A DNA stretch of 63,793 bases, counting the filler, from Hausera hauseri (taxonomy: Eukaryota), in the NCBI GenBank assembly GCA_046269625.1. It is 11 parts of 11 records of this genome, joined end to end, with 100 filler letters (N's around TTAATTAATTAA, not from the genome) between each part and the next. Parts side by side here need not be neighbours in the genome. Positions count along the whole stretch, not along the records: positions 31,859 to 37,390 come from JBJURY010235184.1; positions 37,491 to 41,433 come from JBJURY010869626.1; 9 more parts are not named here. One strand, given 5' to 3'. Position numbers and translations under genes: made by a program. Positions 2,441 through 42,585 of the stretch are shown here, in pieces. The notes beneath the pieces are model-generated. The model ran no database searches. It was not told where the DNA came from and was given only the letters and a program-made list of their open reading frames with translations. Position 1 is the stretch's first letter. Every line of letters starts with the position of its first letter.

Positions 2441-2545
2441 GTTTACAAATCTTAATTTCAGCATGCAATACCATCTTAATGTCTTCCTCGGTACCGAATG
2501 CTCCAATGTTTACTAACGTTGTTTCCCGTTTTCTTAATTTCTTCT

Positions 2546-3061
2546 TTAATTCCGTAGGTAACAAACGTTTCCCATAATTGTAGTTGTAGATCCTGTGTTT
2601 ATCAGTGCAGATATTGGATAACCGTTCACTTCGATGTCTATCTCCGGTCTTAATGCTGATTGTGGCTCGTTTTTCTCCGTCGTTTGATATGTAGGCTCGC
2701 GAATACGTGATATAGGATTCTCATCGTATCTTTGCTTCATTTGTAGTACTTGATACACGGGATACATTCCTACATCCTTTGCATATTGGGGAGCAGATGG
2801 ATTTCTCAGGATTTGTTCATCATAGACTAATCCGTGATATTCGTCTGCCGGGTTTAATTGTGGTAAATCAGTTACTAGTCTCCGCCTATATTTCTGTTTT
2901 CGCGGTTTCAATGCAAATCCTTTTATTCTTGTTACATATTTATTACTGGTTAGTTCAATGCGGAGGTCGTCATTATCATTGTCATTTTTTCCATTTATTG
3001 TGCGGTAGGGCGAGTCCTTTTCAATGTCTTTTTTTAAGTATTTTTTTCCACGCGGCATCAT
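2546..3061 (-). pseudogene. Post-TM linker and N-terminal half of aspartic protease
   Basis: RPEIDIEVNGYPISALINTGSTTTI (catalytic DTG mutated to NTG). The rest of PR and the RT N-terminus appear deleted near 2440. Confidence 0.8.
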
Positions 3062-3069
3062 GATTTGCG

Positions 3070-4597
3070 AAGAAACAACTAGCTACTGCCGGTACTACTG
3101 CTATTAGAATCTTCCATTAGCAGCAAACTGCCGCATTTATTCTATATGCATTACCAAGCGCGGTGAATACTGTTCGTAGGGCACTAATAATGAAGTATAT
3201 CGTTAGAAAACCTGATGCTGCTTGACCGAAGTATAAGAATTTTCCCCACATCTTTTCCATAACAATTCTTGTTACTTTCTTCAAATAATCTTTTCCCATG
3301 AAGTTTTCCCATTGTGGTAAACTTTCTCCGTCCCACATTATTCTTGTTAATTCCGTTATCACTTGTTGTCTATGTTGAAGAAACAACAACATGCGTCGAT
3401 AGTCTTTTAAATTTTGTTGGGTATAGATGCCTCCTTTGGTTATACCCCTAAGTGGTTCAAATTTCTGATTTCTTTGTAGATTTATTAGACTCAGCGTTTC
3501 TGACTTTGCCACTTCTTCTCTTTTTGGCATGCTAGTCCATTTTTTATCGTATAGCTTGAACATGGGTGACATGTTGAATGTACAATTGTCCTATTGAGTT
3601 GGCTTTGCGTTGGGTTCTAACAGTATTCTTGTTACTGGCATTATGTACCTCAGTTCTGTGTGATAGACCACTGGTGATTCGGAGTTACATTATTTAGTGG
3701 GTCTTATCATGAATTCTACATTTTTACATTCAATGGTGATTAATATTTTGCCCGTTACTCTTACAATTACTCCGTCACCGAACGGCATTACTGTTGTTAC
3801 CATATCTGGATTCGTTATTACTAAGGCCATTTTGTTACGTATGATTTCGTAATTCAGCTTACACTCGTTCATTATTATATTTCTGTACAAGCTTCTTATC
3901 TTTTTTCTAACGTAATTAATTAAATAGTCAATCTTTTTGTCGAAATATTACGTTAGTTTTACATCGTTTTTATCTATCTTTATCTTTGCTGCAGGTATCT
4001 CCTTTGGTGATAGAAAGATACCCTTATAATTAGTACTAGATATTTCTTCGTTGCATCTACTTATCGTTCCTGTGATTTTAAATCTTATTATTTCTTCTGG
4101 ATTCTCCGAATACACGATTGTGGCCACTTTTGTCATCTTAACTTCCTTCGTTCATTCTTTATACATTGCTGTTTCCTTTTCAGCCGTTTTATCCACTGTC
4201 TTATTAAATTTTCCTTCTTTCAACAACGTCAAATTACACCGATTTGTCGATGATTCTCATGTCATTTTTATTCTCCAGTATCGCATTCACCGTTATCGTA
4301 TTAGTATTCACTCATTGTTGTCATTACCTTTGTTTGCGCATTAAACAGTGCTTCGTACTCCTTCAGTTGGACTTAATAATCTTCGGTTGCTACTGTTCTT
4401 GGGGCAATAACACCTTCAGCATCGTAATTTACTCCAACACAAGTACCTTCCATGGTTTTATCAATTCTTTCTGCCCTAAAAATTTGGGTGTATTTTATTC
4501 TGTTCCAGACTGCGGGTATGTGTGCATGTTGAATAGTTATTATTCCTATCTTTAAAGCGTCCTGACATTCTGCTCGCGATATTATTATTGATTCAAA
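3070..4597 (-). pseudogene. env: Chuvirus (Jingchuvirales)-type glycoprotein / env, disrupted
   Basis: EGTCVGVNY, RCNEEISSTNY, LYRNIIMNECKLNYEIIRNKMAL, GVIVRVTGKILITIECKNV, GGIYTQQNL, WGKFLYFGQAASGFLTIYFII. Collinear with the contig 2 glycoprotein and with the chuvirus-like G motif series. Confidence 0.85.
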
Positions 4598-4697: not shown

Positions 4698-5591
4698 TAC
4701 TACATGATGCTTATCCCGAGCAGGGATGATTAGTTGGAGTTTCGGCTCCCTTTCATAAATTTTGGCTAATTCTGATGAGTACAGGCGATAGGTCAAGTTA
4801 TAAGTATGTCCGAATTTTGTTTCACAACATTGGGTAAGTTTTCCTGGTTCGAAATCGCAATTCGTGGTTTCTTTTGTTATTTGATCCTCTAAAGCAATCT
4901 GAACCCTTCCAGAATTCCGATGTGGTCTCCATATCTTAAATCCCACGCATGTGGAGTTAGGTGAATAATAGTGGAGCGTTATCGCTTGTAATAGTTTTAT
5001 ATTTTCTTGATCTTGATTTGCCTTGGCTGTTTGAAATTCGTAACTACTATACAATCTAGCTTGTGTCTTCGGAATATATAAGGCAATTAGCGATAATGCT
5101 AAAATTATTTGAACATAAGATATTGGCCTAGTAATTATAGAGGACGTCTTCGTTTTCTTTTTATCTTGATGCGAATTGGATCGTAGGTTGTAACGCTTTT
5201 CTGGCTTTATTTCTGTTTTAACAACTCTTTGAATAGATACTACCTCTTCCTTTCCATTTTTATTAATGTACACCGTAGTTGGTGTAGTTCGAATTACTTC
5301 ATAAGGTCCTCGTCCGGTGCGAGTGAGTTTTAATGATGTGCCTTTCTTTGCGACTGGGTAGTGTACATAGACCCAATTTCCCTTTTCCAGATCGTGAGGT
5401 TTAGCCTTTTTATCGTATTGTTTCTTAAACTGTTCTTGATACTCAAGAGTGAGCGTCTTAGCGATATCCCAACATTTTTGTAATCGTGTTTGTATGACTT
5501 CCGCGAAATTCGGCTCTAAATCTTCTGGATTTGCTTCATATGGAGTCATCCCTAAGTCCGTAGGCAAGATTGCTTCGCGTCCGTACATCAT
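4698..5591 (-). CDS. Integrase C-terminus fused to a signal peptide and Cys-containing domain (truncated by contig end)
   Basis: YGREAILP, GRGPYEV, RYNLRS, then VQIILALSLIALYIPKTQA followed by about 120 further open codons. Confidence 0.85.
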
Positions 5592-7729
5592 AAAAATGGT
5601 GTAAATCCTGTGGCAGGGTGCGGTGTAGTATTGATAGCGAATTGCGTTCCTTCCAAAAATTCATCCCAATCTTTCTGATCTTTCGCTACTACGGTTGATA
5701 AAACACGTACAACCGTTGCATTCATACGTTCGACCATCCCATTGCACTGAGGGTGATAAGCAGTAGTGGTTAATCGTTCGATTTCGAAGATTTTAGAGAT
5801 TTTATCGAATAATTCGCTTGTAAAGTTCCTTCCCCTATCCGTCAATATTTGATCAGGTGGTCCATATCTGCAGATGATTTTTCTTACTACTGCATCAGCT
5901 AAAGTTTCCGCTTTCTGATCGATTAGTGCGATCAACTCCACAAAGTGTGTTAAACGATCTACGCATGTCAATATATATTTATTGTTTTTATGAGTCGTGG
6001 GCAGGGGTCCTACTATATCCATAGACATAGCCTGCATAGGTCTATCCGGTACGCCGATTGGTTTCAATTCTGCTATATAATTCTTTACTTTTCTTTGTTT
6101 TGTTGCGCAGACTTCGCAAGCGTCTACCCAATTTTTTACATCGATATAAACGCTTGGCCAGTAGTACTTATTCAATATTCTTTCCAACGTCTTCTTCCAG
6201 GACATATGTCCGGCTAAATGCGAGTCGTGTTCAGCCATTAATACTTCTGTTCGCAATCCTTTTGGGATAACTACCAATTTTCGTCCCTTTCGTTCATAGT
6301 ACAGAATATTATCTGGATTTGATGCATGATATTTGTGTCCGTGTCTTTGTAGGTGTTTCTTTAGCTGACGTCCTTTTGGTATCTCGTCTTGCTCGGCAAA
6401 TTTAATTATTTGTTGAATAACCTTATCCTTAGCTTGTTCTGAAGCAATTCTGATCGTCTTATTTAGTGTTAGAGTCTGCTGTCGCTCGACTAATTCTTCT
6501 AGCTCTGCTTTCTTCATGGTCGTAATTGTACTTGTTTTTGTTTTTAGTCTTGATAAAGCATCGGCGTCCACATGTTTACTTCCGGGTTTATATTGAAATT
6601 CGATATTGTATCGAGAGATTTCTTCGATCCACCGGTTTAATCTACACGTCGGGTTATTGGCCCGTCCCTTTAGCGTCGTGACAGCCTTATGATCGGTAAC
6701 TATAATAATTTTCTGTCCGTAGACGTAGACATTAAAATGTCTCAAGGCTTCTTTTACGGCTAGTGTCTCTAGCTCGGTGACTGAATAATTCTTCTCAGCT
6801 TTCTTAAGCGATCGTCCTCCGTATGCAATTGGATGTTCCAATTCTTCATCTTCTCTTTTCTGTGCCAATTCATAACCAATCCCTTCTTTACTTGCGTCTG
6901 TTTTGATTATAAATGGTAAGTTAAAATCAGGGTATCTTAATACTGGTTCGCTTGTTAAAATTTTCTTCATTTCGTCGAACGCTTTCTGTTCGACGTCGGT
7001 CCATTTCCATTTGATGCCCTTTTTTAATAGCCGATATAATGGCGCGTTTATTTTCGAATTATCTGGCACATAAGTGGCATAATATCCGCATAAGCCTAAC
7101 CAATGTCTCAATTCTTTTTGATTTTGTGGTTCCATACAATCTGATATTTTGTTTAATAGAGATTTATCTGGTTTCGATCCTCCTTCTCCGACTATATGTC
7201 CGAGATAAGATACTGCATTTTGTGCCCATTTACATTTCTTGGGGTTCAATTTCAATCCGGCCTGTTCTAATCGCATGAGGGTATCTTCGATGTCCTTTAA
7301 GTGTTCGTTTTCTGTTTTCGATGCTATCATCACATCGTCTAAATATGCGAACGCATGATCAAGTCCCATTAACATTTTATTCATCATTCTGGTGAAAATG
7401 GCTGGTCCGGTTGTTATACCAAATGGCATGACGTTAAATTCGTATACCCCGTCGTGTGTTTTAAAAGCTGTTGTATAACGATCATCTTCTTCAATTTTCA
7501 CTTGCCAATATCCGGATTGTAAATCCAGTGTGGTAAACCATTTTGCTCCTGATAGTCTGTCTAGGGCTTCTTTTACTGACGGTAGTGGAAACGAGTCTTT
7601 CATCATAAGCGTGTTTAGGGCTCTGTAATCTATACAGAATCTGTGTTTTGTGGTACCCTTTTTCTTGAACATGAGTATTGGCGAGTACCAAGATCGGTAG
7701 CTTGGTCGTATTATGTCAGCCTTTAACAT
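5588..7729 (-). CDS. pol: Pol segment: RT, RNase H, integrase core (713 aa open)
   Basis: RFCIDYRALN, LDLQSGYWQV, YLDDVM; TDAS/ELE/TDH RNase H; H-x5-H..CEVC zinc finger; MDIVGP, TDRGRNF, GMVERMN (DDE). Confidence 0.97.
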   Translation of the reverse strand: MLKADIIRPSYRSWYSPILMFKKKGTTKHRFCIDYRALNTLMMKDSFPLPSVKEALDRLSGAKWFTTLDLQSGYWQVKIEEDDRYTTAFKTHDGVYEFNVMPFGITTGPAIFTRMMNKMLMGLDHAFAYLDDVMIASKTENEHLKDIEDTLMRLEQAGLKLNPKKCKWAQNAVSYLGHIVGEGGSKPDKSLLNKISDCMEPQNQKELRHWLGLCGYYATYVPDNSKINAPLYRLLKKGIKWKWTDVEQKAFDEMKKILTSEPVLRYPDFNLPFIIKTDASKEGIGYELAQKREDEELEHPIAYGGRSLKKAEKNYSVTELETLAVKEALRHFNVYVYGQKIIIVTDHKAVTTLKGRANNPTCRLNRWIEEISRYNIEFQYKPGSKHVDADALSRLKTKTSTITTMKKAELEELVERQQTLTLNKTIRIASEQAKDKVIQQIIKFAEQDEIPKGRQLKKHLQRHGHKYHASNPDNILYYERKGRKLVVIPKGLRTEVLMAEHDSHLAGHMSWKKTLERILNKYYWPSVYIDVKNWVDACEVCATKQRKVKNYIAELKPIGVPDRPMQAMSMDIVGPLPTTHKNNKYILTCVDRLTHFVELIALIDQKAETLADAVVRKIICRYGPPDQILTDRGRNFTSELFDKISKIFEIERLTTTAYHPQCNGMVERMNATVVRVLSTVVAKDQKDWDEFLEGTQFAINTTPHPATGFTPFL

Positions 7730-8683: not shown

Positions 8684-9329
8684 GTCCTTTGGTATTTAAT
8701 CGAAGAAATCTTATGTCCGTTTATCGTTATCTCTGGTGATGAAATAATATTTTCGGTCAGCTGTTTCAGTTCTTCGTTAGGGTATAAATCGTTAACTGCC
8801 ATGCTATTTGCATTACTTCTGATTAATGGTTCTTGTACTATCGGATTTTGGAACGATTTCACTCCTTGAGTTCCCCAGACTGTTGATCTGGTTTCTATAT
8901 TGCGAGCTATTCTCGGTGAGTACAATATCCTATGGTCATCTTCTGCTCGTCTTTGATTAGTGATCTGCATTTTCTTTAATACTCCGTATTGTTTTGTTCC
9001 TTCATAAGGACCTTTATAGCTAAAAGGTTTCTGACAGAATGCCGATCTATATGACATCATAGATGTTCTGTCGCAATCTTCGTATATTGGAGCCGTTGAC
9101 GGCATGATGGGCAAAGATGCCTTGATTACTGAATACATTTTGTGTCTATTTGGTCCGAGAATTACTTCTCCTTCCTTAGGCTCATCATCATTTGAATTAT
9201 TTATTCGCGTCATTGGTTTCTTAACCTTGGGTTTTAGTCGAAATATGGGCCTTGCTCGTCGTTTGTAATTATAATAGCCGACATGGCGTTCAAAGTCATT
9301 TTTCCATCGATTATTTTCATACGCTTTAA

Positions 9330-11150
9330 GCATTTTACCGAACGGTGTGATGATTGCGGTTAAGATCTTGCAGGAAAATCCTGTTAGCGTGAATGTTTCA
9401 TACCCGTTTATAACTGCTTGGATTACCGCTTTTACTAGTTGTGCCAAAAAATAGATGGCTAAAAATCCAGATGCGGCTTGTCCAAAAATTAAAAATCTTC
9501 CTTATATTTTGTAGAGTATTTCGGTGGTTACTCGTTGGTAATGGTTTGCACCAAGCAAGCATTCCCATTTAGCCTGATATTGGGTATCGTCTACTACTGA
9601 TGCCATGGCTCGGTTTAATTCCTGTGTTCGCTGTCGTGGAAAAGCAAGAAATTGTCGAAAAACTTCGATCTCTTTTGGTCGATAAATGCCTTTTTGAGAC
9701 GTATCCTGGAACTTTTCGTCAGTAATTCCTTTTGCTAAATTAGTTCCAGTTAGTTTTTTAGGGATAATAGTTACACCTCCGTTGGGTAAGCTGACCCAAT
9801 CCGTTTCGCTACGCCTAAACATCGGTTCGCCCAAACTTGCTTTACAATCTTTTAAAATCGTGGGTTGGGTTGCATTATCGAGCAACACTCTAGTGAGGGG
9901 CATGGCTAGACGTGGAGCATTCTGGTAGATTACAGGGAGCTCTTGTTTAAATCGTTTTTCTTCAACATTAATTGGTACATCTCTTTTCTCGCATTCATAT
10001 GTCAGTAAAACTTCTCCAGTAACCCGGCCAAAAATTCCTTCTTTCATGGAAATAATCGGTGAGGCTAACTCCGAATTCGCATAAATAAGAGCTATTTTTG
10101 TTCTCATAATTTCCGTATCTAATTTGCAGTCATTAGTTATCATTTTGTGGTACAGTTCGGCTATTCCGACTTGTCCTTTATAGTAAAAATAATCATCTCG
10201 GTTTTTCAGATAATCCTCGATTCTAATATTTTGCTTTTCTAAATTATATGTTTTCGCGTTTATCTCCGTTTCTGCGACGAAGAGCGCTTCGTAGTTAGTG
10301 TTAAAAATTGCCATTTCACATCGTGAAATCACTTCCCTTTTTATGAATTTCAATCCATGCTGATCAGAGATTAATATCGTAGGTGTATGATGCTCTGATA
10401 CATCTTCACGTGCTCTTGAACCGATGTCGAATTTGTTTACGTATCGTTTTCCGGTAGTTTCATTAAATTTCAATTCCTTAATCGTAATAAAACTACAATC
10501 CTTTTCGGTGGGTGGCTCCCATATGACGACAGAGCTTCTGAAGACACAAGTTCCGTTTTGCATATGACAATTTTGATTCTCAGTATATAACTTAGTGACG
10601 CTATGGAACATTACTTTTTGAACTCGAATTTCCGATTTGTAAAAGTGTACTACCACTACGTTTGCTTCCAGTCCTTTTCCGGTATCGTATTCCGTTCCAC
10701 TACAGTGCCCGTTATGCATATTCAGTCTTCCGGCTACTATCTTATACTCTCTGATTATTTTTCCAGGTTGCATTTCTAATTCAATGTTATCCCATTTCAG
10801 TTTTCAGGTTTCTTTGGCTTGTTTGCAATGTTGTCTTTCCAAATTCATTGGAATTGGAGCGGTTGTTGGTTTAATTATCGAGGAGTGTCCGTGCATTAAC
10901 CCACAGTGAAAAATACTACGAGATCGTCTCAACATACATTCCATGTCATCCAAAGATATCAGCTCTTGTTGTTGGTATAGGAAATAACTCTTCTCCTTTG
11001 TTCCCAATTTATGGAGTCTGGCATTCTCACATGCTTCTAAATCCATTAATGAATATTTTTGTCCTAGCTTAATCTAACGCAATCGTAGACGGTGACAGCA
11101 CCCATCTGTTTTATTAACATCATTATGGTAAGCAAACTGATTAACCAATT
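9330..11150 (-). pseudogene. env: Chuvirus-type (class III-like) fusion glycoprotein with internal signal peptide and C-terminal TM
   Basis: WLISLLTIMMLIKQMGA|VTVYDC, SLMDLEAC, FHCGLMHGHSS, GHCSGTEY, LYHKMITNDCKL, GIFGRVTGEVLLTYEC, QELPV, PLTRVL, KGIYRPKE, FLIFGQAASGFLAIYFL. ORFs 11064-11255, 10804-11046, 9502-10773 and the start of 8626-9447. Confidence 0.88.
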
Positions 11151-16127: not shown

Positions 16128-16189
16128 GTCCCACTAAGTTTAAAATGAACTGTAAATATTTACTGTAAATTTTTAATGAAACAGTTAAT

Positions 16190-19100
16190 CTTAACCCGAC
16201 CCGAGAACTTAGAAAAAACTTTGCAGTTAGCTCAAGACCTATAAATGGCAATAGATAGATATGTCAGACAAAATGATAGGAACGACAACCATGGTAGGGA
16301 TAATAGACGAGTTAATAATAACAGAAATCAGAATGATAATAATGACTATAGAAATAACCGCTATAATAACAGAAATTTTGGCAATGACGGAAATGCGAAT
16401 AATTTAGCTAATAAGTCAAATTTTAGCACAGATAGAAATCAAGATAGTTATAGAAGCTTAAATAATGGAAACCTGCATAATGATAGTCGACAAAATGGGG
16501 ATAATAGACAAGGTCCGTCGAGTGAGAATAATAGAAATATGAGCGGGTTAAAGTCACCTGTAAATGAAGACGGTTGACATAGAGTCGGCAGAAATGACAA
16601 TTTAATTTGCTATGCATGCGGTAAGGAAGGACACATTGCAAGATCATGTCCAAATCTACTTAGCGTCGCATTCGTCGAGACTCACAAAGCTAGTATAATT
16701 AAGACTAACGAAAATTTGGAAGCGATTTATGGCACTCGAGGTGACACAAGTATGTTTATTGAAATGCAAGATTTACGGAGACATATGAAGAATCAAGGCG
16801 AGACTAATAAACTAGAAGTTTTAAAAGTTTAAAAAAAATATGAAAATAAACTATGATTAATGGAAATGTACCATGTGCTTACAGAGCCACAAACAGATTA
16901 CGAATATACTACATCACCAAAATGAACAGATATAGCACGGGAAAAGTATATTCCAGCAATAAAAAACAACCCGGATAAACCGGATGAACCGAAGACGTCA
17001 ACTGAAGTAGACTTGGATGCAGAATCCGAATATACGGTGGAAAAGGTAAACAAAAACCCGGAAGTGGATACAGACGAAAAGGAACTTATGGAACCTCTAA
17101 TACTCAATATAACGAAATATAGAGGACGGAGTCCCTCAATTAAACCAAAATGCAGAAATCGTTCACGATCTCCAATGACTAAGGAAAAAATAGAGAAAAT
17201 AAGAGGGACGGAAATCTCTGCAAAATGCGACGTAGAATTTAGTCTAAATACACCAGAACTCGGTTCGAATACACCTGTTGGAATAGAAGAATTAGCGAAA
17301 CCAGTAAATGAAATAAACGACATATGCCCACTATCTACTAATAAAGAGAAAACAGAACAAACCGAGAAGTTCGATCAGAAAAAGTGGAAGTTCAGGAAAT
17401 CGTGGAAAAACGCCAATGAACTAAGGAAAATGAGAATTCGCTGTCACGATCCAGGTGTATTACAGCAAAACCTAGAAAAACTTAAGCAGATCGCCGAACA
17501 AATAGATATATCCGGTAAAGAACAACAGTTTGCCGAAGAACTGTATAAAAGTTTGAAATTATGCAGCGAAGAGAAACTCGACGAAGCAATTGACTTAGAA
17601 TACCCTGAAGAAATACCTATAAAAGTATTAGCAAATTGCAAACATGGATTACAGTCATGGGTAAAAAGTGGGGTTGAATTTTCAGAAACACGGAGTAAAA
17701 AAGAGGACAGTGTCGATGTTAAAGCGAATAAAGCATAATTTAGAGCAAGCGATGGAAGGAATTAGGTCTGCAATGATTAATCGACTTAAGGAGAAACCGG
17801 TTAATGAACGGAATAAAAACCTCACCTAAACAATGCAAGAATATAGAAACTCGCATTAAAACCGGAAACGAAAATCAATCACAAGTTTAAAATTTAAGAA
17901 ACCGCATTATGTTTGTAATCAACAGATCATGAGTTTTATAAAAGGCCCAGACGACGAATTAAAAGATGCTTATAAAACACTAGACAACTAAAGCAATGGT
18001 CCGAATTAATATTGAAACTGAGTCAGGTAGTGAAAAGTTACATAAAAGAATTCTTAAAGAGTGAACTTATAGTGAAGTAACAATTGGGAGAAATTTCACG
18101 AAATTGAGATACAGTGAGAGCGGGGGTAGATATCCGGAAGCAAATTAATACACTACAACAACTAAAAATTATGGATAAGAACAAAGAGATGGTGTTAATG
18201 AACGAAATATATAAAATGATTGAAGGAACAGATTTTCAGACAAGACAAAACATGACTTGTGACCTCTATCCGAAATTAAGGAATGTTCATTTAGAAGGAG
18301 TCCAACAATTAGCCGCAAAACCCGTAAACGAAATTGCAATTCAAGAAGTAAAACTATTAGACATCTGCCCCGATAATGAACTGACAATAGAAGAAGCACT
18401 GAAATTTCTACAGGACCTTCATGAATGTGTCCCAGGGTCAGATCAAAAATGGCATACTGAATCAATAGAGATAATGGAAGATTACCGATTTACTTTCGGG
18501 GAAACTAGTTTCATAAAGAAATTAATTGAAGAAATCGATCCGGACTCCAAAATTTTAAAACATATGAGTAGATTAACGTCATTGTTAGTAGAAATAGTGG
18601 AAATCAACGATGAAAAAATGAGACAATTGCAAAGTTGGATACATCAAACTCAGAAACCCCAATTCGTACTGACCAAAGAGAAGCAGAAATAGACGAACTA
18701 ACTAGAGAATTTAACGCATACATAAATAAATCCGCTCTTATCGAATCGGAAATAGCCAAAAAAGCAGAATTCGTACAAAGATGGCAGCGAGATGTAACCT
18801 CCTACTTAACTCATTAACCACAAAAAAGACTTATTCAGGCAGACAAACTTTGTCAGTTGCTAACTTTGTTGCATCAAGTTTCCGGCAATTGACTCTGTTT
18901 TCGGATGAAACAAATGGTCAAAATGCAACAAAAATTACGCGAAGTAAGAGAAAGGGTACAAAATGCGAATGTAATCCAATAATCCGGGATCCCTATTGAC
19001 TATGGGCTTCTAGAAAATAGGCCCAGAATTCTATGCGTATTTCGATGTAACAGTTGCCGAAAATCAGAAAACCCCAGTACATCTGTATGAAACAGAAATG

Positions 19101-19633
19101 TACCCACAGAATTGGAAATTCAATGTGGAGATGCTTCTGAATTCAGCGCTAATTGAAAAGGATTTAATTGAACTAATTAACGTAAATATAACTGAAAATA
19201 GGTTAAGACAACTTATTCCTACTCTAACTAGCGATAACACAATTTATATCTCTGTGCCAAAACTTCTTATAAAAATACGCTAAAATCTTAAAGACTAAAC
19301 CTGAGGTGATGCTAAAAGTGAAGGTGTCATTTGAATGAATGAATGAAAAAGAATGCGAGTTTACAACGCATACCTCTGTGGGGACGTAAGGCAGTGGTTA
19401 ATAAAGAACGGTGGTGGAAACTTACTAAACTATAAACTTTATTTTAGAGACAGTGTATTTGACGAATTAGAATAACGAATAGACGTTGGGATTATCCCAG
19501 ATGAAACAAATCGAATAGTGGCAATAGTCACTAATGAACAGACTAAAGAAGAAGCCATGAGAAAGGCTAAAACTGGCCTATGTGTAGGACAAATCGTGAG
19601 AGTCGGATGCGCTGCAATGGAACCGAAATGTGG
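16190..19633 (+). pseudogene. gag: Gypsy gag C-terminus (N-rich tract, CCHC knuckle) followed by about 3 kb of unknown charged domain X
   Basis: CYACGKEGHIARSC at 16608-16649. Collinear with 31859-33340 (-) and 37790-39523 (+). No protease follows the knuckle. Confidence 0.85.
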
Positions 19634-19783
19634 TTTTTGTTATTTCATATTTTTTCATTGTTTGCTCAAAGTTTTGCTATAGTTTTGCACTGCTTCTTAA
19701 TAGTGACTGGATAAAATTTAGTTAGATAAGAGAATAGGGAGAAAATGGCGGTTCAGGCCCACCCCGGGGGATTGATAAATCGA

Positions 19784-29055: not shown

Positions 29056-29069
29056 GTATCCGTCGATTA

Positions 29070-31473: not shown

Positions 31474-31620
31474 TGTTAGAGTTTTGATAAGAATGGTCAG
31501 TGCAAATTTGGAGAGAATCGCAAATACTTACACCAAACAAGTAAGGACGATCAAAGAAGAGAGTGTTGGTACTTCGAGAATGGAGAATGTAAGTATGGAG
31601 AAAACTGTAAATTCCGGCAT
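31474..31620 (+). pseudogene. Tandem CCCH zinc fingers
   Basis: C*SFDKNGQCKFGENRKYLH (degenerate) and CWYFENGECKYGENCKFRH (C-x7-C-x5-C-x3-H), in frame with ORF 31060-31479. Confidence 0.85.
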
Positions 31621-31858
31621 GGAAAAATTGGTAGCAAAGGAAAGAGCAAAGGCAGTTATTATAAGAAGGAGATAAGGCAAGGGACTGAAAAATTTTGCGA
31701 AAACATAGCAGGCAAGAAGAAAAAGAAAAAAATATCACGAACGATAAAAATTGAAGAANNNNNNNNNNNNNNNNNNNNNNNNNNNNNNNNNNNNNNNNNN
31801 NNTTAATTAATTAANNNNNNNNNNNNNNNNNNNNNNNNNNNNNNNNNNNNNNNNNNNN

Positions 31859-33888
31859 GATTCCAATTCGTGTTTCCATTTTAATAATATTTCCGGGGAC
31901 ACCTCTTCAGGCTGCCTCACATCGATTGCTTCAACAAACTTCCCTTCGGTACGTAATTTCAAGCTTTTATATAACTTCTCGGCGTATTGCTGTTCTTTCC
32001 CAGATATGTTGACTTGTTCACTAATCTGCTTGATCTTCTCTAAGTTTCGTTGTAATATTTCGGGCTCTAAACAATAAATTCTCATTTTCTTTAATTCGTT
32101 GGCGTTTTTCCATGAGCGTCGGATTTTCCACTTTTTCTAATTGAAATCGTCATTGTTGGCCGTTTCTTCCTCACTAACGGGAAGTGGGCAGATTTCTCTA
32201 ATTTTATTAATTGACTCTATCGGCTCCGCTACTCCGACAGGTGTGTATGAACCAATTTCTGGTGTATTCAAACTATACTCCGTGTCGCCTTCTTCAACGA
32301 CATTCGGGTTTTCCGTTTCTTCAATTTTCTCTCCGGTTATTTTGGAAAGTGAACGACTTCTACGTTTGGTTTTTAGTAAAGGGCTACGGCCTCTATTTTT
32401 CGTAATTTTGAGTATTAATAATTTCATAAATTCTTTTTCTGCTGTATGGTCCTCCGTGAGCTCAGCTATCTTTTGGACTGTGAGCTCATGCTTTGCGTCT
32501 AAATCTACTGTCGTCGATGTGCTTGGGTTATCAGATGGCTTATTACTTGTCGGAATACTCTTTTTCCGTGTCACATCACTTTGCTTAGGTGCTATTCCAT
32601 ATTCATATTTGGTTTCGGGTTCTGCTAAGCCGCGATATACCTCTAATAACCTTAACTTATCTCTGTATTCTCTTCTAGCCGTCAAAAATTGCAGGTTAGT
32701 AGTATCCGGCTAAGCATCTAGAAATTTTCTCAAATCATGTATGTCGATCATAGTGCCTGTATCTCCGCGGATGCCATACTTTTCTTCCATTTTCTCATTG
32801 GTTCTAATCATACTAGTCTTATTTGGTTCAGTAAATGAAACGTTACGCGGATTTGGACATGACCTTGAAATGTGTCCTTCTTTACTGCAAGTAAAGCAGA
32901 CTAAGTTTCCGTTTCTGCCGACTCTTTGTCGTCCGTCTTCGTTTACCGGTGACTTAGATCTATTTATACCTTTATTATATTGATTTGCCAAGTTTTGCGT
33001 ATTATTGGCATTTCTTCTGTTGTCACTATTTCGGCTATCGCTGTTTTGATTTGAGCCTTTATAATTTTCTCTATTCCTATCCCAGTTGGGTTCTGATCTG
33101 TTCGTATTAGAATAATTACCGCCTATACCATTTCTGTAACCGGCATTGTTGTTTCTATTCCCATAATTTCTGTTGCCCGTAAATTGTCTGTCATCTCTTC
33201 CACGATTATCATTACGATTCCTATCATTTCGGTCATTTCAATTGTTATTCCTATCGTTTCTATCATTATGTCTGGCGTATCTATCTAGTGCCATTTCTAA
33301 ATCTTGGGCTAATCGTAACGTTCCTTCAAAATTCTTGGGTCTAGCTAAAATCAGTTGTTTAATCAAGTCTCGTAACCAAATACCATTTATTAGTTGCGTT
33401 TTCATCATGACATCTAAATCCGACGGTGAGGCCTTCTCTGCGGCGTCGCGTTCTGCCTCCGTTTTGGCTTTAGCCACGTTGGCTATTCTCAATGTGCTTA
33501 TGTAACTATTAGCAAGTTTCTTCAACGCAAATGCAAATTGGGTTACCGATTCACCATTTTGCTGTACTCGGTTTTGAAATGCCATAAGCTTTTGTTGCGG
33601 CGTTACGGTTGGCAACAATTTACGATTTAATGCTCCTACCATGGAGGACCAAGATTTCTTTTCCTCATTAGTGAGTTCACTATAGGCATCAGCGACTAAA
33701 TTTTTCAAATACAACTACAATCGCTTAATCGTTACTTCAGGAGTCAGACTAGCACCTTCCGCGTGCAACTTATAAGTTCTCAAAAATTCCTTGAGCCCAT
33801 CTGGGTCTCCGTCATATGCTAGCAGGTTTAGAGAGTCGAACGTGAAAATGTCCAGTTTCTGTGCTACGGGTGGATTATCTGCTGCCAT
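31859..33888 (-). pseudogene. gag: Gypsy gag (capsid, N/R-rich tract, CCHC knuckle) running into domain X
   Basis: MAADNPP..YDGDPDGLKEFL..RVQQNGESVTQFA..CFTCSKEGHISRSC. A few in-frame stops. Confidence 0.9.
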
Positions 33889-34267
33889 ATAATTTACGTT
33901 ATTTGGCTCTAAATTTGCTTTATTTACTCTAGGTTTCTCGAGTGGAACTTTAAACTGTTTATCTTGCGCAACAACGTCTAGTTTATTTCTATTCTCAGAA
34001 TTTGAACGTTTTCTACCTTTTCTGTTTCTCTGTATATATTTCTAGGCGTTTCACGTATAGGTGAATTGTCTTTTAATATACGATTTATTCCTGACTTATC
34101 AGTGTTTGTTCTCAATTAAATTTTGTTTACTTATCCCCGTAAAATAGCCTATATACCCGAAATTTAAATTCCGATTCTGAATAAATCAAGTTACTCGGTG
34201 TAATGGCGCTGTTCGCCGGTATGTAATTATTTAACTCTGATAAGTAAAGTCTAGCGAGGTACAGACA

Positions 34268-34284
34268 GTCCTGTAGGGTCGCCA
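34268..34284 (-). promoter_or_regulatory. Primer-binding site (tRNA-Arg-like)
   Basis: TGGCGACCCTACAGGAC, 2 nt after the LTR 3' end ...TATAACA. tRNA identity is from memory of Arg tRNA 3' ends (..GGTCGCCA). Confidence 0.8.
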
Positions 34285-34286
34285 AA

Positions 34287-35112
34287 TGTTATATATTGGG
34301 GTGGCCCTTATACAATCTCCCACTATATAACAATAGTTACACTTGAAGTTAATGTTTACGCAGGTAAGGTCTACCGTAATCGTGTAGACAGAATGTACCT
34401 TAACCAATTTAAATATTTAGTAATGCGTGTACTGCTTGCGGTCCTCTGCAAATGTTATGAAAATCTCCTCTTACCTATACAATTTACCGTGAAATTTAAG
34501 ACCTTAGTGTCGTCGAATTACCCTTAAGGGGCACTGAAAAACTATGTAAGAATTTTAGAATAAACAATATATTTATACAAAAACAATTACTCAATGCTTC
34601 ACATATCAATCAAATTGAAGTCAGTAGTTTTCACTGAATTTGTGCTCTGCGGTTTCTAGAAAAACTTCATCTTCTCGATAATCTAAGAGTTCGCTTTCAC
34701 TTCTCTAAGGAAGTCAATAGGCTTCAATAGCTTTAGGTCAAGGGCAACTTAGAGATCTCACAAGTCTTCAAATAACTTCACAAAAATTCACAAAAGTTTT
34801 AATAGTTCTAAAATCTGTCTGCTTATATACTAATTCAACTGCGTAGGCGACTGATTACTCTTGTAATTATAATCAGTTTTAACTGAATTTTTCGGTATTT
34901 TCTGATTTAAAAATTAATATCAATTCAATGCTTTCTCCAAAAATTCTGTAAAATATACCAATTTATTACTAAATACCTTCTTTAATTTTGTACAAATTCC
35001 TAATTTCGTTCAATAACGAAAAATATTATAAATTAACAAATATCTACAATTTGTTGATTATAATGCTATCTACAAATTGAACGTCTTCTCAATTATGGAC
35101 GTCTTTACAACA
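34287..35112 (-). repeat. Long terminal repeat (826 bp) of the gag-X element
   Basis: TGTTGTA...TATAACA termini; preceded by a PPT and followed by a PBS; TATA-like GTATATAAGC at 34821-34830. Confidence 0.88.
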
Positions 35113-37360
35113 TTTCTCCTCCCTGAACGGCATCCTCGGATGTGCCCATTGCGTCAGGAGAGGTGCCGCGGCGACGAGGGTCTCGTAGTAATTCCATTCG
35201 CTGTCTTAAACTGGGTCCGGAACTTGTACTTGTTTGATCTTCTTCTCTAGTATTTGTTTCTAATTCATAACTGTAATGGGGCCTTATGCGGACTACACGG
35301 GTATAACTACCGTTTGAAAAATATTTAAGTTCAGTTGCCTCGGCTCTACACACCGGGCAGGTAGTTTTGCCATTATCTAGGGTCCATTTTTCCAAGCAAT
35401 CTCTGCAATATTTGTGTCGACAATCACGGTTATCTAAAATGACATATCCTTGGTTGAGATTTGCTTCACATACTGGGCATTCATTTTCTTCTTTGCCCCA
35501 TTTCTCATCATCTAAATCTACCCTTATTATAAGCTCTATGGGTTCGAATATGAGACCATCCTTATCTTGATATATGTAACCATGGATTCTTTTTTGTTTG
35601 GGATTTACTGAACTCTTCCTGGGGTCACATCCTACTGGTACTAAAATCCAATCGGCGATAGTATCTCGATCTAAATCGGGAATTTCGCCATCCGTTTTAT
35701 ATTTTTGATACTGTCTTTTCAACAAAGCTTTCATTTGTTTATCCACTGGCACTGTTAGCTTTCCATTTCTCTTTGATAGGAAAACTGGCGCGATGTATTT
35801 TCCTATTTTAGGGTTTTCCCAGATGTAGGTATTTTCATATACTTCTCGAGCTGGTGTGGTCTTCACGAAAAACATTGCTTCTTTGATCGTCTGGCGGCTA
35901 TAGTACTCGGTTGTTATTAACATCCTTGGGTGATCTTTAGTTGTCGCAAAGTGAACATCTTCTTGGGAGTTTCGTTTTCTAAGAATGTTAACTTCCGTAA
36001 ACAGTTGTTGAAATCCACTTTCTGGGTTCTTATGTTTATATGATGATCTCTTGGGTTTTTCTAGACTTGTTATCTGGTTGTCTTCGGACGTTGTTGGCCT
36101 TTCGGGTTCTTCGTTTGTTTTATCGGGTTGATTCTCTTGAACTTGGTTCGGGTTTATTCCTTTATTCTTCTTTTTGAATAAATAATCGTAGAGGGATAAT
36201 TTTCTTTTGATCGGAGAAATTTGTGTTTCAGCTTTCTGTTTCTTCGACGGAATTTTGGGTACTTTGAATATCTCAGCTGTTTCTATTTTCTTGCTTATGG
36301 GTTTGATTTCTGGAATCGGTTTGACGTAAGAACTATAACTGGTACTTGGTACTTCTGTACATAGTTGGCTTGGTTTTTGAATGATTATTTTGATATTATC
36401 TCGTCCCATCGGTTCCACAATTCTGCATGGGGAATATGAACGATACTGCTTCCGATACCTTTTATTTATATTTTCCGGTTCGGTTGTACTTCGTAGATTT
36501 TGTTCTGGATTATTAGGTGTCCACTCATGGTCCCATTTTAAAGCTACGTATATGTCGCGTAAGTAGCGAGTACGTTGACTTGCAGTTAGCAGTTTACTAA
36601 TCTTAACATGTTCGCTGTTCATGGCATCGACCATTAATTTGAAATAGGCGTCCATAACTTTTGGTGCGGGGTAATTTCTTTCTCGTAATATTCGTTTACT
36701 TTGTTCAGCGACTACTGGGTGTGATCCTATCTCCCGTATTCCTACGATGGTCGATATGGGTATTTCTAATAATTCAATAATATTATCGATGCGGTATCCT
36801 GTTATGATATATCCATATAAACAATGTTCTAATTCAGATTGAACAAGCTTGATGTCTCTGCCTTTCGAGAGTGTTTCCTTGCGAATTCCTGTCGTATCAT
36901 AGTATGTTTCGCGAACTCGTTTTCTTGGGCTGATAACTGTACAATATACCTCTGTTCCGTTCGTTTCTCGAACTGACACTTCCATTGGGATTTTCTGTGC
37001 ATTGTCTGCTTCTCCACAATTAATCGCTATGATTCTGGTATTTCTGTCATCCTTCACTAGTCTATACGATTGTAGGAATGTGTCCAAATCTTTTTCTGAT
37101 GGTTGTTGGTAGAACTTCAAAGGTGGTAATTTGACATATGGGTAACCGTCATGCGTTACTTCGAACATTATTTTTACGGGAAGGGTGGCTACTCTGAACT
37201 CTAACTCGTAATGTTGCAAATCTTGGCTACGGAAGCTAAGTGTACTGAATCTGTATTGTCTTCCATCGTTGGTGTTCCATTCTTGGTCTTTGAATCGATA
37301 ATATATCTCACCGTCTGCTAGGTGGATGTAAATTGTCTGTCTACTCCCGTATGCGATCAT
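35105..37360 (-). CDS. 3'-terminal ORF of the LTR element: inactive DEDDh (REX4/ISG20-like) exonuclease domain plus C3HC4 RING finger (5'-partial)
   Basis: 751 aa, frame open to the contig end at 37390. RING CPVC-x15-CRH-x2-C-x2-C-x12-CPVC at 35348-35479; exonuclease-like fold at aa ~109-275. Stop codon lies inside the LTR. Confidence 0.85.
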   Translation of the reverse strand: MIAYGSRQTIYIHLADGEIYYRFKDQEWNTNDGRQYRFSTLSFRSQDLQHYELEFRVATLPVKIMFEVTHDGYPYVKLPPLKFYQQPSEKDLDTFLQSYRLVKDDRNTRIIAINCGEADNAQKIPMEVSVRETNGTEVYCTVISPRKRVRETYYDTTGIRKETLSKGRDIKLVQSELEHCLYGYIITGYRIDNIIELLEIPISTIVGIREIGSHPVVAEQSKRILRERNYPAPKVMDAYFKLMVDAMNSEHVKISKLLTASQRTRYLRDIYVALKWDHEWTPNNPEQNLRSTTEPENINKRYRKQYRSYSPCRIVEPMGRDNIKIIIQKPSQLCTEVPSTSYSSYVKPIPEIKPISKKIETAEIFKVPKIPSKKQKAETQISPIKRKLSLYDYLFKKKNKGINPNQVQENQPDKTNEEPERPTTSEDNQITSLEKPKRSSYKHKNPESGFQQLFTEVNILRKRNSQEDVHFATTKDHPRMLITTEYYSRQTIKEAMFFVKTTPAREVYENTYIWENPKIGKYIAPVFLSKRNGKLTVPVDKQMKALLKRQYQKYKTDGEIPDLDRDTIADWILVPVGCDPRKSSVNPKQKRIHGYIYQDKDGLIFEPIELIIRVDLDDEKWGKEENECPVCEANLNQGYVILDNRDCRHKYCRDCLEKWTLDNGKTTCPVCRAEATELKYFSNGSYTRVVRIRPHYSYELETNTREEDQTSTSSGPSLRQRMELLRDPRRRGTSPDAMGTSEDAVQGGEML
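35113..35124 (-). promoter_or_regulatory. Polypurine tract
   Basis: AGGGAGGAGAAA directly before the LTR TG. Confidence 0.85.
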
Positions 37361-37789
37361 CTGTTTAAGTGAGTACGCTCGGGCATCTTTNNNNNNNNNN
37401 NNNNNNNNNNNNNNNNNNNNNNNNNNNNNNNNNNTTAATTAATTAANNNNNNNNNNNNNNNNNNNNNNNNNNNNNNNNNNNNNNNNNNNNGAAACAATTA
37501 AAGGAAAAGACATGTTTGGTTTATTTTAGGGAGGTTTTTTTTTCTTAAAAACAAGTTTTGAGATTCCTCCCACCGTGCTTGATATCTGAGCTCTTTTGAG
37601 ACGTTCGGGCTGTGGTACAGCGTCAGACGGTTTGGCAGGAGCTCTGAGGTTTGTGGTTATTTGCTGGCAGAGCGGACTTCAGGAACGAGGTGGTCTGTTA
37701 TCAGTGGACACACACAGCTGCCTCTTTCTGCCGAGTCCAACTGATGTTTACCGATGCCAATTTTAGACAAGATAAGCACAAGTCCACAA

Positions 37790-40700
37790 GGACTTGAAGT
37801 GTGGAAAAGGGAAACAAAACCCCGGTAGCCGACGCAGACGAAAAGGAATTTATGGAACTGCTATTACTTAAAATCACGAAAAATAGAGGCCATAGCCTAT
37901 CATTAAAACGGAAACGTAAATATTGTTCAAGATCACCAATGATTAAAGAAAAATTAGAAAAAAGAAACTGAAATCGCTGCAGAAAGCTACGAAGAACTTG
38001 GTCTAAACACACCAGAACTTGTTTAATTTACACATGTTGGAATAGAAGAATTAACAGAATCGGAAAATGAAATAAACGATATATGTCCACTACCCGCTAG
38101 TGAAGAAGAAGCAGAACAAACCTTGAAGTTTGATCGGAAAAATAGAAAATCAGACGATCGTGGAAAAATGCCGATGAATTGAAATGGATGAGAATTCACT
38201 GTCACGAACCAGAACTATTACGACAAAACCTAAAAATACTTAAACAGATCTCAAAACAAATAGATATCTCATATAAAGAACAATAATTTGCTGAAAAGTT
38301 GTATAAAAGTTTGAAATTATCAGTGAAGGGAAACTCAGTGAATCAATCGATTTAGGACAACCCGAAGTAGTACCACCAAAATGTTAGCAAAATGGAAATA
38401 TGAATTAGGTTCATGGATAAGAAGTGGAGTTGAATTTTCAAAAACATGGAATAGAATTGAGGATGGCGTCGATGTGAAAGTGGCTAAAGCTCAGACGTTA
38501 TAAACCACGTTAGAGACCACTCCGAAATTAAAAGGAGTAAAGCGTAATTTAGAACAGGCAATGGAAGGAATTAGGTTTGTAATGGTTAATCGACCTATAA
38601 AGAAACCGGTTAAAGAACGGAATAAAATCAAATCAGAAATATTGGGTATAGATCCAGTAGATATTCCTCTCTTAATGGAAATGTTAAAATTGCATCCTCT
38701 GCACATAATCAATATGCAAATATAGAGAATCGCATTAAAACTGTAAACCAAAAACGATCACCAATTTATAGTTTAAGAAACAGAATAATGCATATGAAAA
38801 ACGAAGCGACTCAAAATTTGATTAAAGTTTGCATCTTGGAATTTGATGAGTACAATGATGAATTTAATTATGCCAACCAGATCATAAGTTTTATAAAAGG
38901 CCCAGACGAATTAAAAAATGCTTATAAAACGCTAGACATAGCAATACTGCCGGAACCCGTAATAGCTAAGCAACTAAAAGAATGTCCGAATTAATATTAA
39001 GACTGAGTCAGGTAGTGAAAAATCGCATACAAGGGTTCACAGAAAGTGAAACGATAGTGAAACAAGAATTAGGAGAAATTTCACAAAATTTAGATACAAT
39101 GTGAACAGAAGTAGATATCCTGACGCAATTCAATACACTACAACAACTAAAAATTAGGGACAAGAACAAAGAGATGGTGTTAATGAACGAAATGTATAAA
39201 ATGATTGAAGGAACCTATTTTCAGATAAGACGAAACATTACTCATGGCCTCTATCCGAAATTAAGGAATGTCAGTTAGAAGAAGTCCAACAATTAGCTGA
39301 AAAATCCATAATCTCGATCCAAGAAGTAAAACTATTAGTCATCTGCACGGACTATTAACTGTTAATAGAAGAAGCACAGAAATTTCTACCGGACCCTCAT
39401 AAATGGATCCCAGGATTGGATCAAAAGTGGCATGCTGAATTAGTAGAGATAATGCGAGATCATCGACTTACTTTCGAGAAAACTAGTTTCATAAAGAAGT
39501 TAATTGAAGAAATCGATCCAGATTTAAGCCTATCAAATGGACGCATAACTGTCATCCCTTACAAATTAACAGAAACCAATCCCGTAAAAGGAATAACGGA
39601 CGATAAATTCCAGGATACCTCATCAAAAGGCATTTATAGACCAAAGGAAGGTGAAGCTTTTAGACAGTATCTCGCTTTTCCGCGTCAGCATACACATGAA
39701 TTAAGTCGAGCCATGGCTGCAGTAGTAGGCAAAACTTGCTACAAAGCAAAATGGGAATCTTCACTTGGTGCAAACCATTATCAAGGAGCTACCACTTAAA
39801 TACTATACAAAATTTGTGGAAGAGTTTTAATTTTTGGTAAAGCCGCATTTAGATTTTTAGCGGTCTATTTCTTCGTACAATTAATCAAAGTCGTAATCCA
39901 CGCAGTTATAAATGGATACAAAATATTTACATTTACTGGTTTTTCATGCAAAATTTTGACTGCAATTATAACATCGTTTGGAAAGTAGGTGGAAAACTGA
40001 CGCAGTACGACATGTTGGTTATTATAATCGAAAATGACAAAGAAGACCGAAAAAAACGATTAGGATGAGATGCCATCTCCAGAACAAACATACATAAAAC
40101 GTATTCTGTCATAAAGCCACAATTACCCATGTTGCCTCCGACGAAACAATGAGTTTTACGGAAAATGCACGAAAATAGGGAAAACTCTGCACTCTATCTC
40201 AGAAAGTCAGTGGATGACCACAAAATATTATATTCTCAAAGAATACTCCAAAACAAAGAAACCAGATCAATAGCCTGGGGAAATCAAAGAATGCAAACTT
40301 TTCGAAATCTAGAGCCATATACGAATAATCAAGAATCACTAATTAGTAGCCATGAAGCAGGGGATACGAACGTCACAAACAACGAACTGTATACGAATGG
40401 TGAAATGAAACAACTAACTGAAAAATTAATGACCTCTCCAAAAGTCAGAATTAACGGCCATAAAATATCGATGATTAAATAACCCAAAGTTGCATGGAAT
40501 TGTTACGGAACAATTATAGAAGGAAGGCTTTTTATCAAAGTCAGTATTGAAGACTGGGAAGTTTATGCCTTAATCGACGAAGGTTCTGAAACTTCGTACA
40601 TCAAAAGTGACAGTTCCGCAGACGTTAAGGAAACAATTGTATCCACTATCAGTGAAAGACTGGAAGTAGAGGAGCCTTTGGACAAATGTCAGGAACGATG

Positions 40701-41120
40701 TTTAAATAAATCCAGAAGTTCACATTATGGTACAATCTTTCCATCACGAATGTGTAGTAATGGAATAATTAACCGACGATGTAGTATTAAGTTGTGATTT
40801 ACTGAGGCAATTACCGAACGTGTCGGTAGATTTTCACGCTGGTAAATTAAAATGAGTAAAAAGAGTAAAACCTAAGGAATATAAATATCCGGAGAAGTAT
40901 GTATTCCAGTAGACTAGGAGATTGTTAATATTCGCACAAATCTGTGAGGATGATGGTAAACCAGTGTATTTTGAGCACATGGAAACGTTGAATCCGAATG
41001 TCGTATTTAGTAATGTACTAACAAGTGTAACATCAGGTCGTTTGACGATCAGATTAACGAATAAGGCACCAACTCCAGTTAAACTACACGCCAAAACTAC
41101 TCTTGTCCAAACAAGAATTT
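37790..41120 (+). mobile_element. Internally deleted copy of the gag-X / glycoprotein / protease element
   Basis: 37790-39523 matches domain X (contigs 4 and 7). 39524-41120 matches the glycoprotein C-terminus, TM, protease (ALIDEGS) and spacer of contig 2. Confidence 0.88.
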
Positions 41121-41533
41121 AAATTTCTCCGAAAATGTCACCGATGCTTCACCCTCAAAGTTGCATAATTTCCATCTTCCATTTTTCAATACAACTTTTA
41201 CCGTTTTTGTATGGATTCTAGCCTCAAACATACTATTTTGAAAGAAAATCAAGACAAACTCAAGGAAAAGGACATGAAGATATCGAAAGACAATTGCATT
41301 AAATGGTTTGAACATGCGGATAACGGCACAGAGCACAAACCACTCTCTTCTACCATATGAAGAATTTGGTAGGACACGGTTATGACAATGGAGCCAATAA
41401 TAACACACACGCAGTTATTTTGCGCAAAAATAANNNNNNNNNNNNNNNNNNNNNNNNNNNNNNNNNNNNNNNNNNNNTTAATTAATTAANNNNNNNNNNN
41501 NNNNNNNNNNNNNNNNNNNNNNNNNNNNNNNNN

Positions 41534-42566: not shown

Positions 42567-42583
42567 CACGTCCGGGGTCACCA
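42567..42583 (-). promoter_or_regulatory. Primer-binding site, tRNA-Trp-like (ERV-B)
   Basis: TGGTGACCCCGGACGTG versus the Trp PBS TGGTGACCCCGACGTG; 2 nt after the LTR end. Confidence 0.82.
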
Positions 42584-42585
42584 TT

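Follow-up and report, generated by a model that had tools for sequence, protein, structure and literature searches.

The DNA analysed here, a stretch of 63,793 nucleotides (filler included; hereafter, the window), comes from the Hausera hauseri assembly GCA_046269625.1 and is made of 11 contigs joined with N spacers. Five of the contigs hold decayed copies of sister families (at least two, probably three) of a Ty3/gypsy element with a gB-type envelope gene (env) between gag and the protease; the element is likely at least 15 kb long, its host is likely a flatworm, and the open reading frame (ORF) at its 3' end likely encodes a separate protein. This reading is given a probability of about 0.68. 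No single piece shows the whole element, and all the copies in the window carry stops, frameshifts or deletions, intact gag, env and pol ORFs being absent from them. The contigs in question are the following:

1-4597, contig 1, a distant relative of contigs 2, 4, 7 and 8
4698-11525, contig 2, the glycoprotein-to-integrase piece
15850-20153, contig 4, the end of gag and a region termed X
31859-37390, contig 7 (JBJURY010235184.1), the 3' ORF, a long terminal repeat (LTR), gag and X
37491-41433, contig 8 (JBJURY010869626.1), X, the glycoprotein tail and the protease

Membership in the Ty3/gypsy group is indicated by (i) the order protease (PR), reverse transcriptase (RT), RNase H (RH) and integrase (IN), found with Pfam in contig 2 and likewise present in contig 1; and (ii) a TG...CA LTR with a primer binding site (PBS) and a polypurine tract (PPT) in contig 7, where a single LTR copy is seen. 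An env of the gB/Monjiviricetes type lies upstream of the protease in contigs 1, 2 and 8. Across the pieces, the order gag-X-glycoprotein-PR-RT-RH-IN-signal peptide holds, gag being placed upstream of env through a chain: gag is joined to X in contigs 7 and 4, X is joined to the glycoprotein in contig 8, and both gag and env are found in P0024, a natural protein read in one frame. An earlier note on this DNA had proposed the order from the LTR through the post-integrase signal peptide, and this chain of physical joins, together with P0024, supports it. The same note held that five contigs reconstruct one element, a claim that does not stand, as the pieces are homologous, not overlapping, and the summed length mixes different families. 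The sum itself, given as about 15.2 kb, is reproduced (15,172 bp, with two unseen gaps). Only four contigs were named there, the fifth presumably being contig 1, which belongs to a far more distant env-before-pol element.

Contig 7, on its minus strand, presents the 3' ORF, PPT, LTR, PBS, gag and X, each of them found in the order that had been described:

35113..35124, minus strand, PPT, within the last codons of the 3' ORF
34287..35112, minus strand, LTR of 826 bp, TG...CA, with 7-bp imperfect inverted ends; the single copy ends the 3' ORF and begins the gag side
34267..34284, minus strand, PBS, which begins TGGCGACCC at 34284, 2 nt past the LTR
32851..33888, minus strand, gag (Pfam), with a capsid-like region, an Asn/Arg-rich stretch, one CCHC knuckle and in-frame stops; best match P0024 residues 28-136, E 1.3e-9
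31859..32850, minus strand, region X of contig 7, in the frame of gag, no family found

The PBS is one that we take to be of the tRNA-Arg type; there are no tRNA genes in the window. After the PBS comes a leader of 398 bp and then gag, the CCHC knuckle and X in a single frame with four in-frame stops. Since the single LTR is bordered by both a PPT and a PBS, it likely results from the collapse of two LTRs during assembly or from two copies in tandem; in either case, the 3' ORF and the gag of contig 7 would share an LTR family. Region X gave no Pfam or PDB match of note, and no RNA source is listed for the sequence of contig 7.

Region X is extended by contig 4, as had been stated: it overlaps the X of contig 7 by homology and continues for ~2.0 kb beyond it. 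Contig 8 had been credited with joining X to the glycoprotein tail and the protease; all three do lie on one piece, but X meets the glycoprotein only where 2.8 kb or more has been lost.

16156..19640, plus strand, contig 4, end of gag, CCHC knuckle and ~3 kb of X, from sister family B, with stops and frameshifts
37801..39522, plus strand, contig 8, much-decayed X of family B, 73-80% identical to contig 4
39523..39526, plus strand, contig 8, joint where X meets the final quarter of the glycoprotein, 2.8 kb or more having been deleted
39527..41122, plus strand, contig 8, C-terminus and transmembrane segment (TM) of the glycoprotein, cytoplasmic tail, protease and PR-RT linker; PF24664 E 9.9e-9; 66-76% identical to contig 2

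The likeness of contig 8 to contig 4 stops at 39522 and its likeness to contig 2 begins at 39527, and the joint leaves out 1,096 bp or more of X and 1,733 bp or more on the glycoprotein side. Downstream of the joint, the glycoprotein tail and the protease share one frame, as they do in P0024. A splice origin of the joint was ruled out, there being no donor GT on the X side. With regard to the surroundings of these pieces, the left flank of contig 8 (37491-37740) looks fish-like, and its right flank (41123-41433) is presumably a scrap of a hAT transposase. The element fragment of contig 4 is bordered by a repeat of 62-69 bp (16059-16127 and 19643-19711, 86-89% identical); its right flank is rich in short palindromes, and the fragment may sit within another repeat. 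A TIR/SEFIR-like appearance of the X tail of contig 4 was considered and is not supported.

Contig 2 had been described as glycoprotein, pol and a secreted domain, and it does contain a signal peptide, a PF24664 glycoprotein, a TM, PR, RT, RH, IN and a second signal-like hydrophobic segment. Contig 1, a distant element, shows the same order.

11088..11144, minus strand, contig 2, internal signal-peptide-like segment ahead of the glycoprotein, hydropathy 1.82
9328..11073, minus strand, contig 2, Monjiviricetes/gB-type fusion glycoprotein, TM at ~9409-9465; PF24664 E 8.5e-60; 28% to P0024
8357..8656, minus strand, contig 2, aspartic protease, RVP E 1.6e-6
5292..7666, minus strand, contig 2, RT, RNase H and integrase in Ty3/gypsy order, with a frameshift in the C-terminal part of the integrase
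4698..5138, minus strand, contig 2, signal-peptide-like segment after the integrase (5070-5138), then an ectodomain with Cys residues, truncated where the contig stops; no Pfam family
170..4447, minus strand, contig 1, glycoprotein, TM, tail, PR fragment, a deletion, then RT, RH and IN

The glycoprotein of contig 2 has two in-frame stops, and a frameshift separates it from its signal peptide; with the residue letter X placed at the two stops, its PF24664 match spans profile positions 37-606 of 653. It gave no PDB match by sequence, and a weak search for longer fused forms of it found none. The PR-RT linker looks dUTPase-like, but weakly so, its score being matched or beaten in 2 of 500 shuffles.

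The natural polyproteins were drawn from the long relatives of the contig 2 pol, of which the best 120 of 1,450 matches were examined. P0024 (2,871 aa) carries, in one frame, gag (67-160), CCHC (237-252), PF24664 (558-1205), PR, RT, RH and IN, followed by hydrophobic segments (2610-2632 and 2731-2749) on both sides of a Cys-rich stretch. Among these 120 proteins, it is the top match of the contig 7 gag (E 1.3e-9; the next has 2e-6, and 10 of the 120 match at E<1) and, at a score of no less than 40 bits, the sole match of the glycoproteins of contigs 1, 2 and 8. Two other proteins, P0025 and P0027, also finish with an ectodomain and a TM after the integrase; the pol identity of the three to contig 2 is 41-43%. 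The post-integrase ectodomain of contig 2 has no sequence similarity to theirs, position and hydropathy alone being in common. P0024 differs from these contigs in its short gag-env spacer and in a second protease-like segment after the integrase. Among the matches listed, the top pol relatives all show the gypsy-type order, and an RT-RH tree groups contigs 1 and 2 with P0024, P0025 and P0027 (SH-aLRT 95). This tree has 117 rows, 115 of the 120 matches having passed the length filter, and is made of the search's own matches, with no BEL, copia or retrovirus outgroup. Another of these proteins, P0118, is an env-before-pol polyprotein of 2,707 aa with a clear dUTPase upstream of the glycoprotein.

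The 3' ORF of contig 7 comprises the following:

35105..37390, minus strand, 3' ORF of 761 codons, 5' end open, with its stop 6-8 nt inside the LTR
36521..37042, minus strand, DEDDh/DnaQ-like domain devoid of ExoI and ExoIII catalytic residues, limits approximate
35345..35479, minus strand, C3HC4 RING finger, all eight ligands present; Pfam zf-RING_2 E 1e-8; conserved in P0121

It had been read as a dead exonuclease plus a RING, and profiles and an alignment of relatives show both calls to be right. A full-library search gave 161 matches at E 0.001 or better, nearly all of them RING-only, and just three (P0121, P0122 and P0126) cover the N-terminal part. P0121 (E 4.6e-172) aligns with the whole 3' ORF at 41% over 816 columns, the last seven residues being identical; P0122 (E 9e-47) covers residues 1-199; and P0126 is distant and has no RING. 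In that search, identity to P0121 and P0122 is 44-45%. A joint profile of the relatives matches ISG20L2 (E 9.7e-9), the PolC exonuclease, SDN1, ISG20 and DnaQ; the nuclease-like domain of contig 7 alone scores only E 0.1. Foldseek likewise points to ISG20L2/ISG20 (E 2e-5 to 1e-4), a match that is supporting only, since the model has a mean pLDDT of 39, and for the domain ahead of the RING the predicted fold is too poor for use (pLDDT <50, residues 1-150).

The ExoI acids are missing in contig 7, P0121 and P0122, and those of ExoIII are missing in the two that reach it, contig 7 and P0121, while P0126 retains both the ExoI D-x-E and the ExoIII H-x4-D motifs. For this reason, we infer that the loss of catalytic residues is probably a lineage trait under selection and not decay of the contig 7 copy. 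P0121 and P0122 reach 120-130 residues upstream of the end of contig 7, and these extensions have no match in the post-integrase region of contig 2. In both proteins, a stretch rich in Phe and Leu precedes the conserved block at a corresponding position (residues 13-20 in P0121 and 16-24 in P0122); it could be a translated pyrimidine tract belonging to a splice acceptor. A basic motif common to the 3' ORF and P0121, seen by eye, could be a nuclear signal. Searches for metagenome contigs with the 3' ORF or its alignment and for prokaryote genomes with P0121 found none, and those for viral contigs with the contig 2 pol, P0121 or P0024, made for the DNA around the relatives, found none either. 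It is likely that the pseudonuclease-RING cargo belongs to an env-before-pol element, and it is somewhat likelier that the 3' ORF is a separate ORF than that it is fused in one long ORF.

The contigs are 66-80% identical to one another in nucleotide sequence, and the longest exact words that they have in common measure 12-32 nt. At four-fold sites, contigs 4 and 8 differ at 16/67 (0.24), contigs 7 and 8 at 10/23 (0.43 +- 0.10), contigs 4 and 7 at 32/61, contigs 2 and 8 at 53/93 (0.57) and contigs 1 and 2 at 61/90; saturation is expected, by our estimate, near 0.66 given the base bias. Because contigs 4 and 8 differ at 0.24 of these sites and contigs 7 and 2 differ from contigs 8 and 4 at 0.43-0.57, the contigs fall into separate families: to judge from their sequences, contigs 4 and 8 belong to the same family, and contigs 7 and 1 each represent a further one. 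Contig 2 lies outside the family of contigs 4 and 8 and may or may not belong to that of contig 7.

As for abundance, sequence like that of contig 7 is present in high copy in two public runs, which at 80% likeness gave 10,523 and 685 contigs, with 30 of 30 bins covered in each. Summed contig depth, which is not a copy number, reaches its minimum within the LTR and its maximum close to the PPT, the pattern that numerous subfamilies differing in their LTRs should give. The ratio of observed to expected CpG (CpG o/e) is 0.98-1.15 in contigs 1, 2, 4, 7 and 8, versus 0.74 in contig 5 and 0.60 in contig 9; the DIRS-like element of contig 5 and the TLV_coat retrovirus of contig 9 look, we assume, teleost. 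Together, this contrast and the teleost-like contigs suggest a mixed sample with an invertebrate source for contigs 1, 2, 4, 7 and 8. By eye, the contig 2 env resembles six Schmidtea 'C1a' rows of a published alignment (PMC13524379). A flatworm host is favoured, with odds somewhat better than even.

Several observations weigh against this reading. No overlap was found at either of the two gaps of the combined model, and both a link from the post-integrase region to the 3' ORF and an intact X joined to the glycoprotein start are absent from every contig, protein and read examined. Contigs 2 and 7 are without any homologous stretch in common and, hence, cannot be shown to be one family. In the RT-RH tree, a quick one without bootstrap, contigs 1 and 2 sit on long branches (1.38 and 1.73), and the env-before-pol proteins P0043 and P0118 fall outside the group of contigs 1 and 2 and P0024; in addition, P0024 contains nothing homologous to X. 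A hydrophobic stretch at the very start of P0121 (1-24), absent from P0122, could be the TM of a fused form. Regarding the host, CpG transitions are 1.5-1.7 times in excess in the comparisons with contig 8 (32/123 vs 96/631 at other sites for contigs 4 and 8, and 34/107 vs 107/497 for contigs 2 and 8), sites being counted in both directions and p-values thus optimistic, and no significant excess is found between contigs 4 and 7. The left flank of contig 8 (310 bp) has a CpG o/e of 0.60. There are thus hints that the contig 8 copy sits in a methylating (fish) genome which, if true, would point to parasite-host transfer.

Three other explanations have been weighed. The pieces could come from one family with one long ORF from gag to RING, the TM lying in the unseen gap and the nuclease-RING part being the cytoplasmic tail of the second membrane protein. 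The hydrophobic N-terminus of P0121 does fall in a part missing from contig 7, contigs 2 and 7 may be one family, their distances from contig 8 being similar (0.57 and 0.43 +- 0.10), and Burro, a giant gypsy element of planarians, puts its cargo in one ORF of 4,873 aa (PMC6431247). However, P0024, P0025 and P0027 end 122, 131 and 54 residues past their post-integrase TM, with no nuclease or RING there, P0121 and P0122 were each called as a gene of their own, with some 50 initial residues that agree well neither between the two nor with the contig 2 ectodomain, and longer fused forms came to 0 of 2,342 candidates in a weak search, so that one long ORF seems unlikely. It might also be that the gag-X/RING element of contig 7 carries some other pol, or lacks one, contig 2 being from another family, and that the model mixes unrelated ends: the window holds no physical link, synonymous divergence is close to saturation, and cargo ORFs are known to shift between retroelement lineages (PMC5408684). 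Nevertheless, the X of contig 7 is homologous to that of contig 8, which is followed on the same piece by a glycoprotein and a protease with 62% identity to those of contig 2, and the contig 7 gag and the contig 2 env both lead to P0024, making a mixture of this kind very improbable. Least credible is that contig 8 is an assembly chimera with a false X-glycoprotein link. Its abrupt switch, within ~4 nt, in a repeat-rich short-read assembly would fit; but contigs 2 and 4 have no exact word above 12 nt in common, offering no obvious seed for an overlap-graph mis-join, both halves of contig 8 are similarly decayed, and P0024 independently gives the gag-env order. Without a long word in common from which a mis-join could start, the joint is more likely due to a genuine deletion that an old copy suffered.

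Under the preferred reading of sister families with a separate 3' ORF, the ancestral element would have encoded one gag-X-env-pol polyprotein. In it, the fusogen would enter the endoplasmic reticulum (ER) by means of an internal signal peptide, and the fusogen TM would bring the chain back to the cytosol, where the element protease (with cutting by signal peptidase) would free RT, RH and IN. A second signal peptide, after the integrase, would yield a second membrane protein. The product of the 3' ORF would be a separate, possibly spliced, nuclear or cytosolic protein, able to bind RNA via its dead DEDDh fold and to ubiquitinate a partner via its RING, and it might aid the export of element RNA or blunt host silencing. 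By analogy with inactive DEDD proteins and with CERV (see below), RNA binding and ubiquitination are likely activities of this protein. In a bolder picture, which we regard as quite doubtful, a fish-parasitic flatworm would harbour an enveloped gypsy virus in high copy number; the viral polyprotein would pass four times through the ER membrane and give a gB-type fusogen and, as its attachment partner, a second glycoprotein from after the integrase, and an RNA-binding pseudonuclease-RING ligase would mark host small-RNA silencing proteins for destruction. If it is true that the pseudonuclease-RING protein targets silencing proteins, it would be a retrotransposon-encoded counter-defence E3.

Elements with the order GAG-ENV-POL and an HSV/gB-type ENV (errantiviruses) are known in Platyhelminthes, Nematoda and Bryozoa (Chary and Hayashi, PMC13524379). 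The element described here resembles them in its Ty3/gypsy pol, in its gB-type env before pol and in an ectodomain placed between signal peptide and TM. It differs from them in (i) the post-integrase membrane cassette, not described in the parts of that paper that were covered (its figures and the authors' repository may show one); (ii) the nuclease-RING ORF, absent from its main text ('ring' and 'exonuclease' have 0 occurrences); and (iii) the state of the copies, broken in the window and intact there. All 9 flatworm elements listed in that paper come from three free-living genera and, among 30 of the 50 parasitic-flatworm rows of its host table, none has more than one ENV-POL env match. If the host is a parasitic flatworm, the listed host range of gag-env-pol elements would widen.

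The giant element Burro/GYPSM1 of planarians has env in frame between gag and pol, and apoptosis/ubiquitin cargo (Arkhipova and Yushenova, PMC6431247). Likenesses to it comprise env between gag and pol, homology to a mononegavirus fusion protein, a large gag-env insert, ubiquitin-type cargo and, possibly, a dUTPase-like PR-RT linker. The single frame of the Burro type is seen in P0024 and in the glycoprotein tail and PR of contig 8, and is broken in contig 2. Burro exceeds 30 kb and has 2-3 CCHC knuckles, BIR, BCL2, MATH and ankyrin (PMC6431247), whereas here, comparing with Burro by description only, there is one knuckle, an X of no known family and a 3' pseudonuclease-RING. BIR, BCL2, MATH and ankyrin were not found by Pfam in the parts of the element that the contigs cover. 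At ~15 kb the element is large, yet half the size of Burro. P0027, one of the natural relatives, has extra protease-like segments after the integrase, plus ankyrin repeats there that recall Burro cargo. The env-before-pol giant layout with ubiquitin-type cargo is, thus, already published.

With regard to the 3' ORF, the LTR retrotransposons Juno and Vesta of bdelloid rotifers have a DEDDy ORF3 (Rodriguez et al., PMC5408684), that is, as here, a DnaQ-family exonuclease gene captured downstream of pol. Theirs is of the DEDDy type with intact catalytic residues, and 'RING' has 0 occurrences in the text of that paper, which also names inactive DEDD proteins. The domain here is instead of the ISG20/DEDDh-like type; it is degenerate at the catalytic positions in three relatives, and in two it is joined to a RING. 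Cer1 of C. elegans has a gypsy 3' ORF, CERV, which lies in the usual env position, is spliced and acts on element RNA (PMC10309623); it serves as a functional model for the 3' ORF here, kinship in sequence not being claimed. The LTRs of Troyka (PMC12440569) end in CG...CG, unlike the TG...CA found here. No published description of a pseudonuclease-RING ORF in a gypsy element was found in the literature searched, which lay outside subscription journals and Repbase. In the parts of the literature examined, neither the post-integrase signal-peptide/ectodomain cassette, also present in three natural relatives, nor a conserved 3' pseudonuclease-RING with its stop inside the LTR is described. Should the RING protein prove to be a ubiquitin ligase that binds RNA or is guided by it, it would be a small, assayable candidate for the manipulation of host ubiquitin or silencing pathways by giant flatworm retroelements, a question that Burro leaves open.

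The window holds other elements as well. On its minus strand, contig 9 (41534-54794) carries a teleost-like retrovirus with an integrase C-terminus (MLVIN_C), an open TLV_coat env of 592 codons at 52063-53841 and then ~10 kb with no annotation, in which lie a tandem array of 60-bp units (50141-50483) and two sites resembling a PBS, near 42576-42585 and 50715-50725; it is possibly a large fish endogenous retrovirus with an accessory region, or nested elements. The DIRS-like element of contig 5 (20254-25948) has three long overlapping frames (562, 516 and 1106 codons), RT, RNase H, a Dam-like methylase match and a 59-bp terminal repeat at 20375 and 25888. Contigs 3 (11626-15749) and 6 (26049-31758) hold related BEL/Pao-type fragments (DUF1759 gag and integrase), 71-83% identical, and the differences between them show no CpG excess. 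Finally, a Tc1/mariner element with inverted repeats of ~165 bp lies at 56415-57931 in contig 10, which also contains a gypsy RT fragment.

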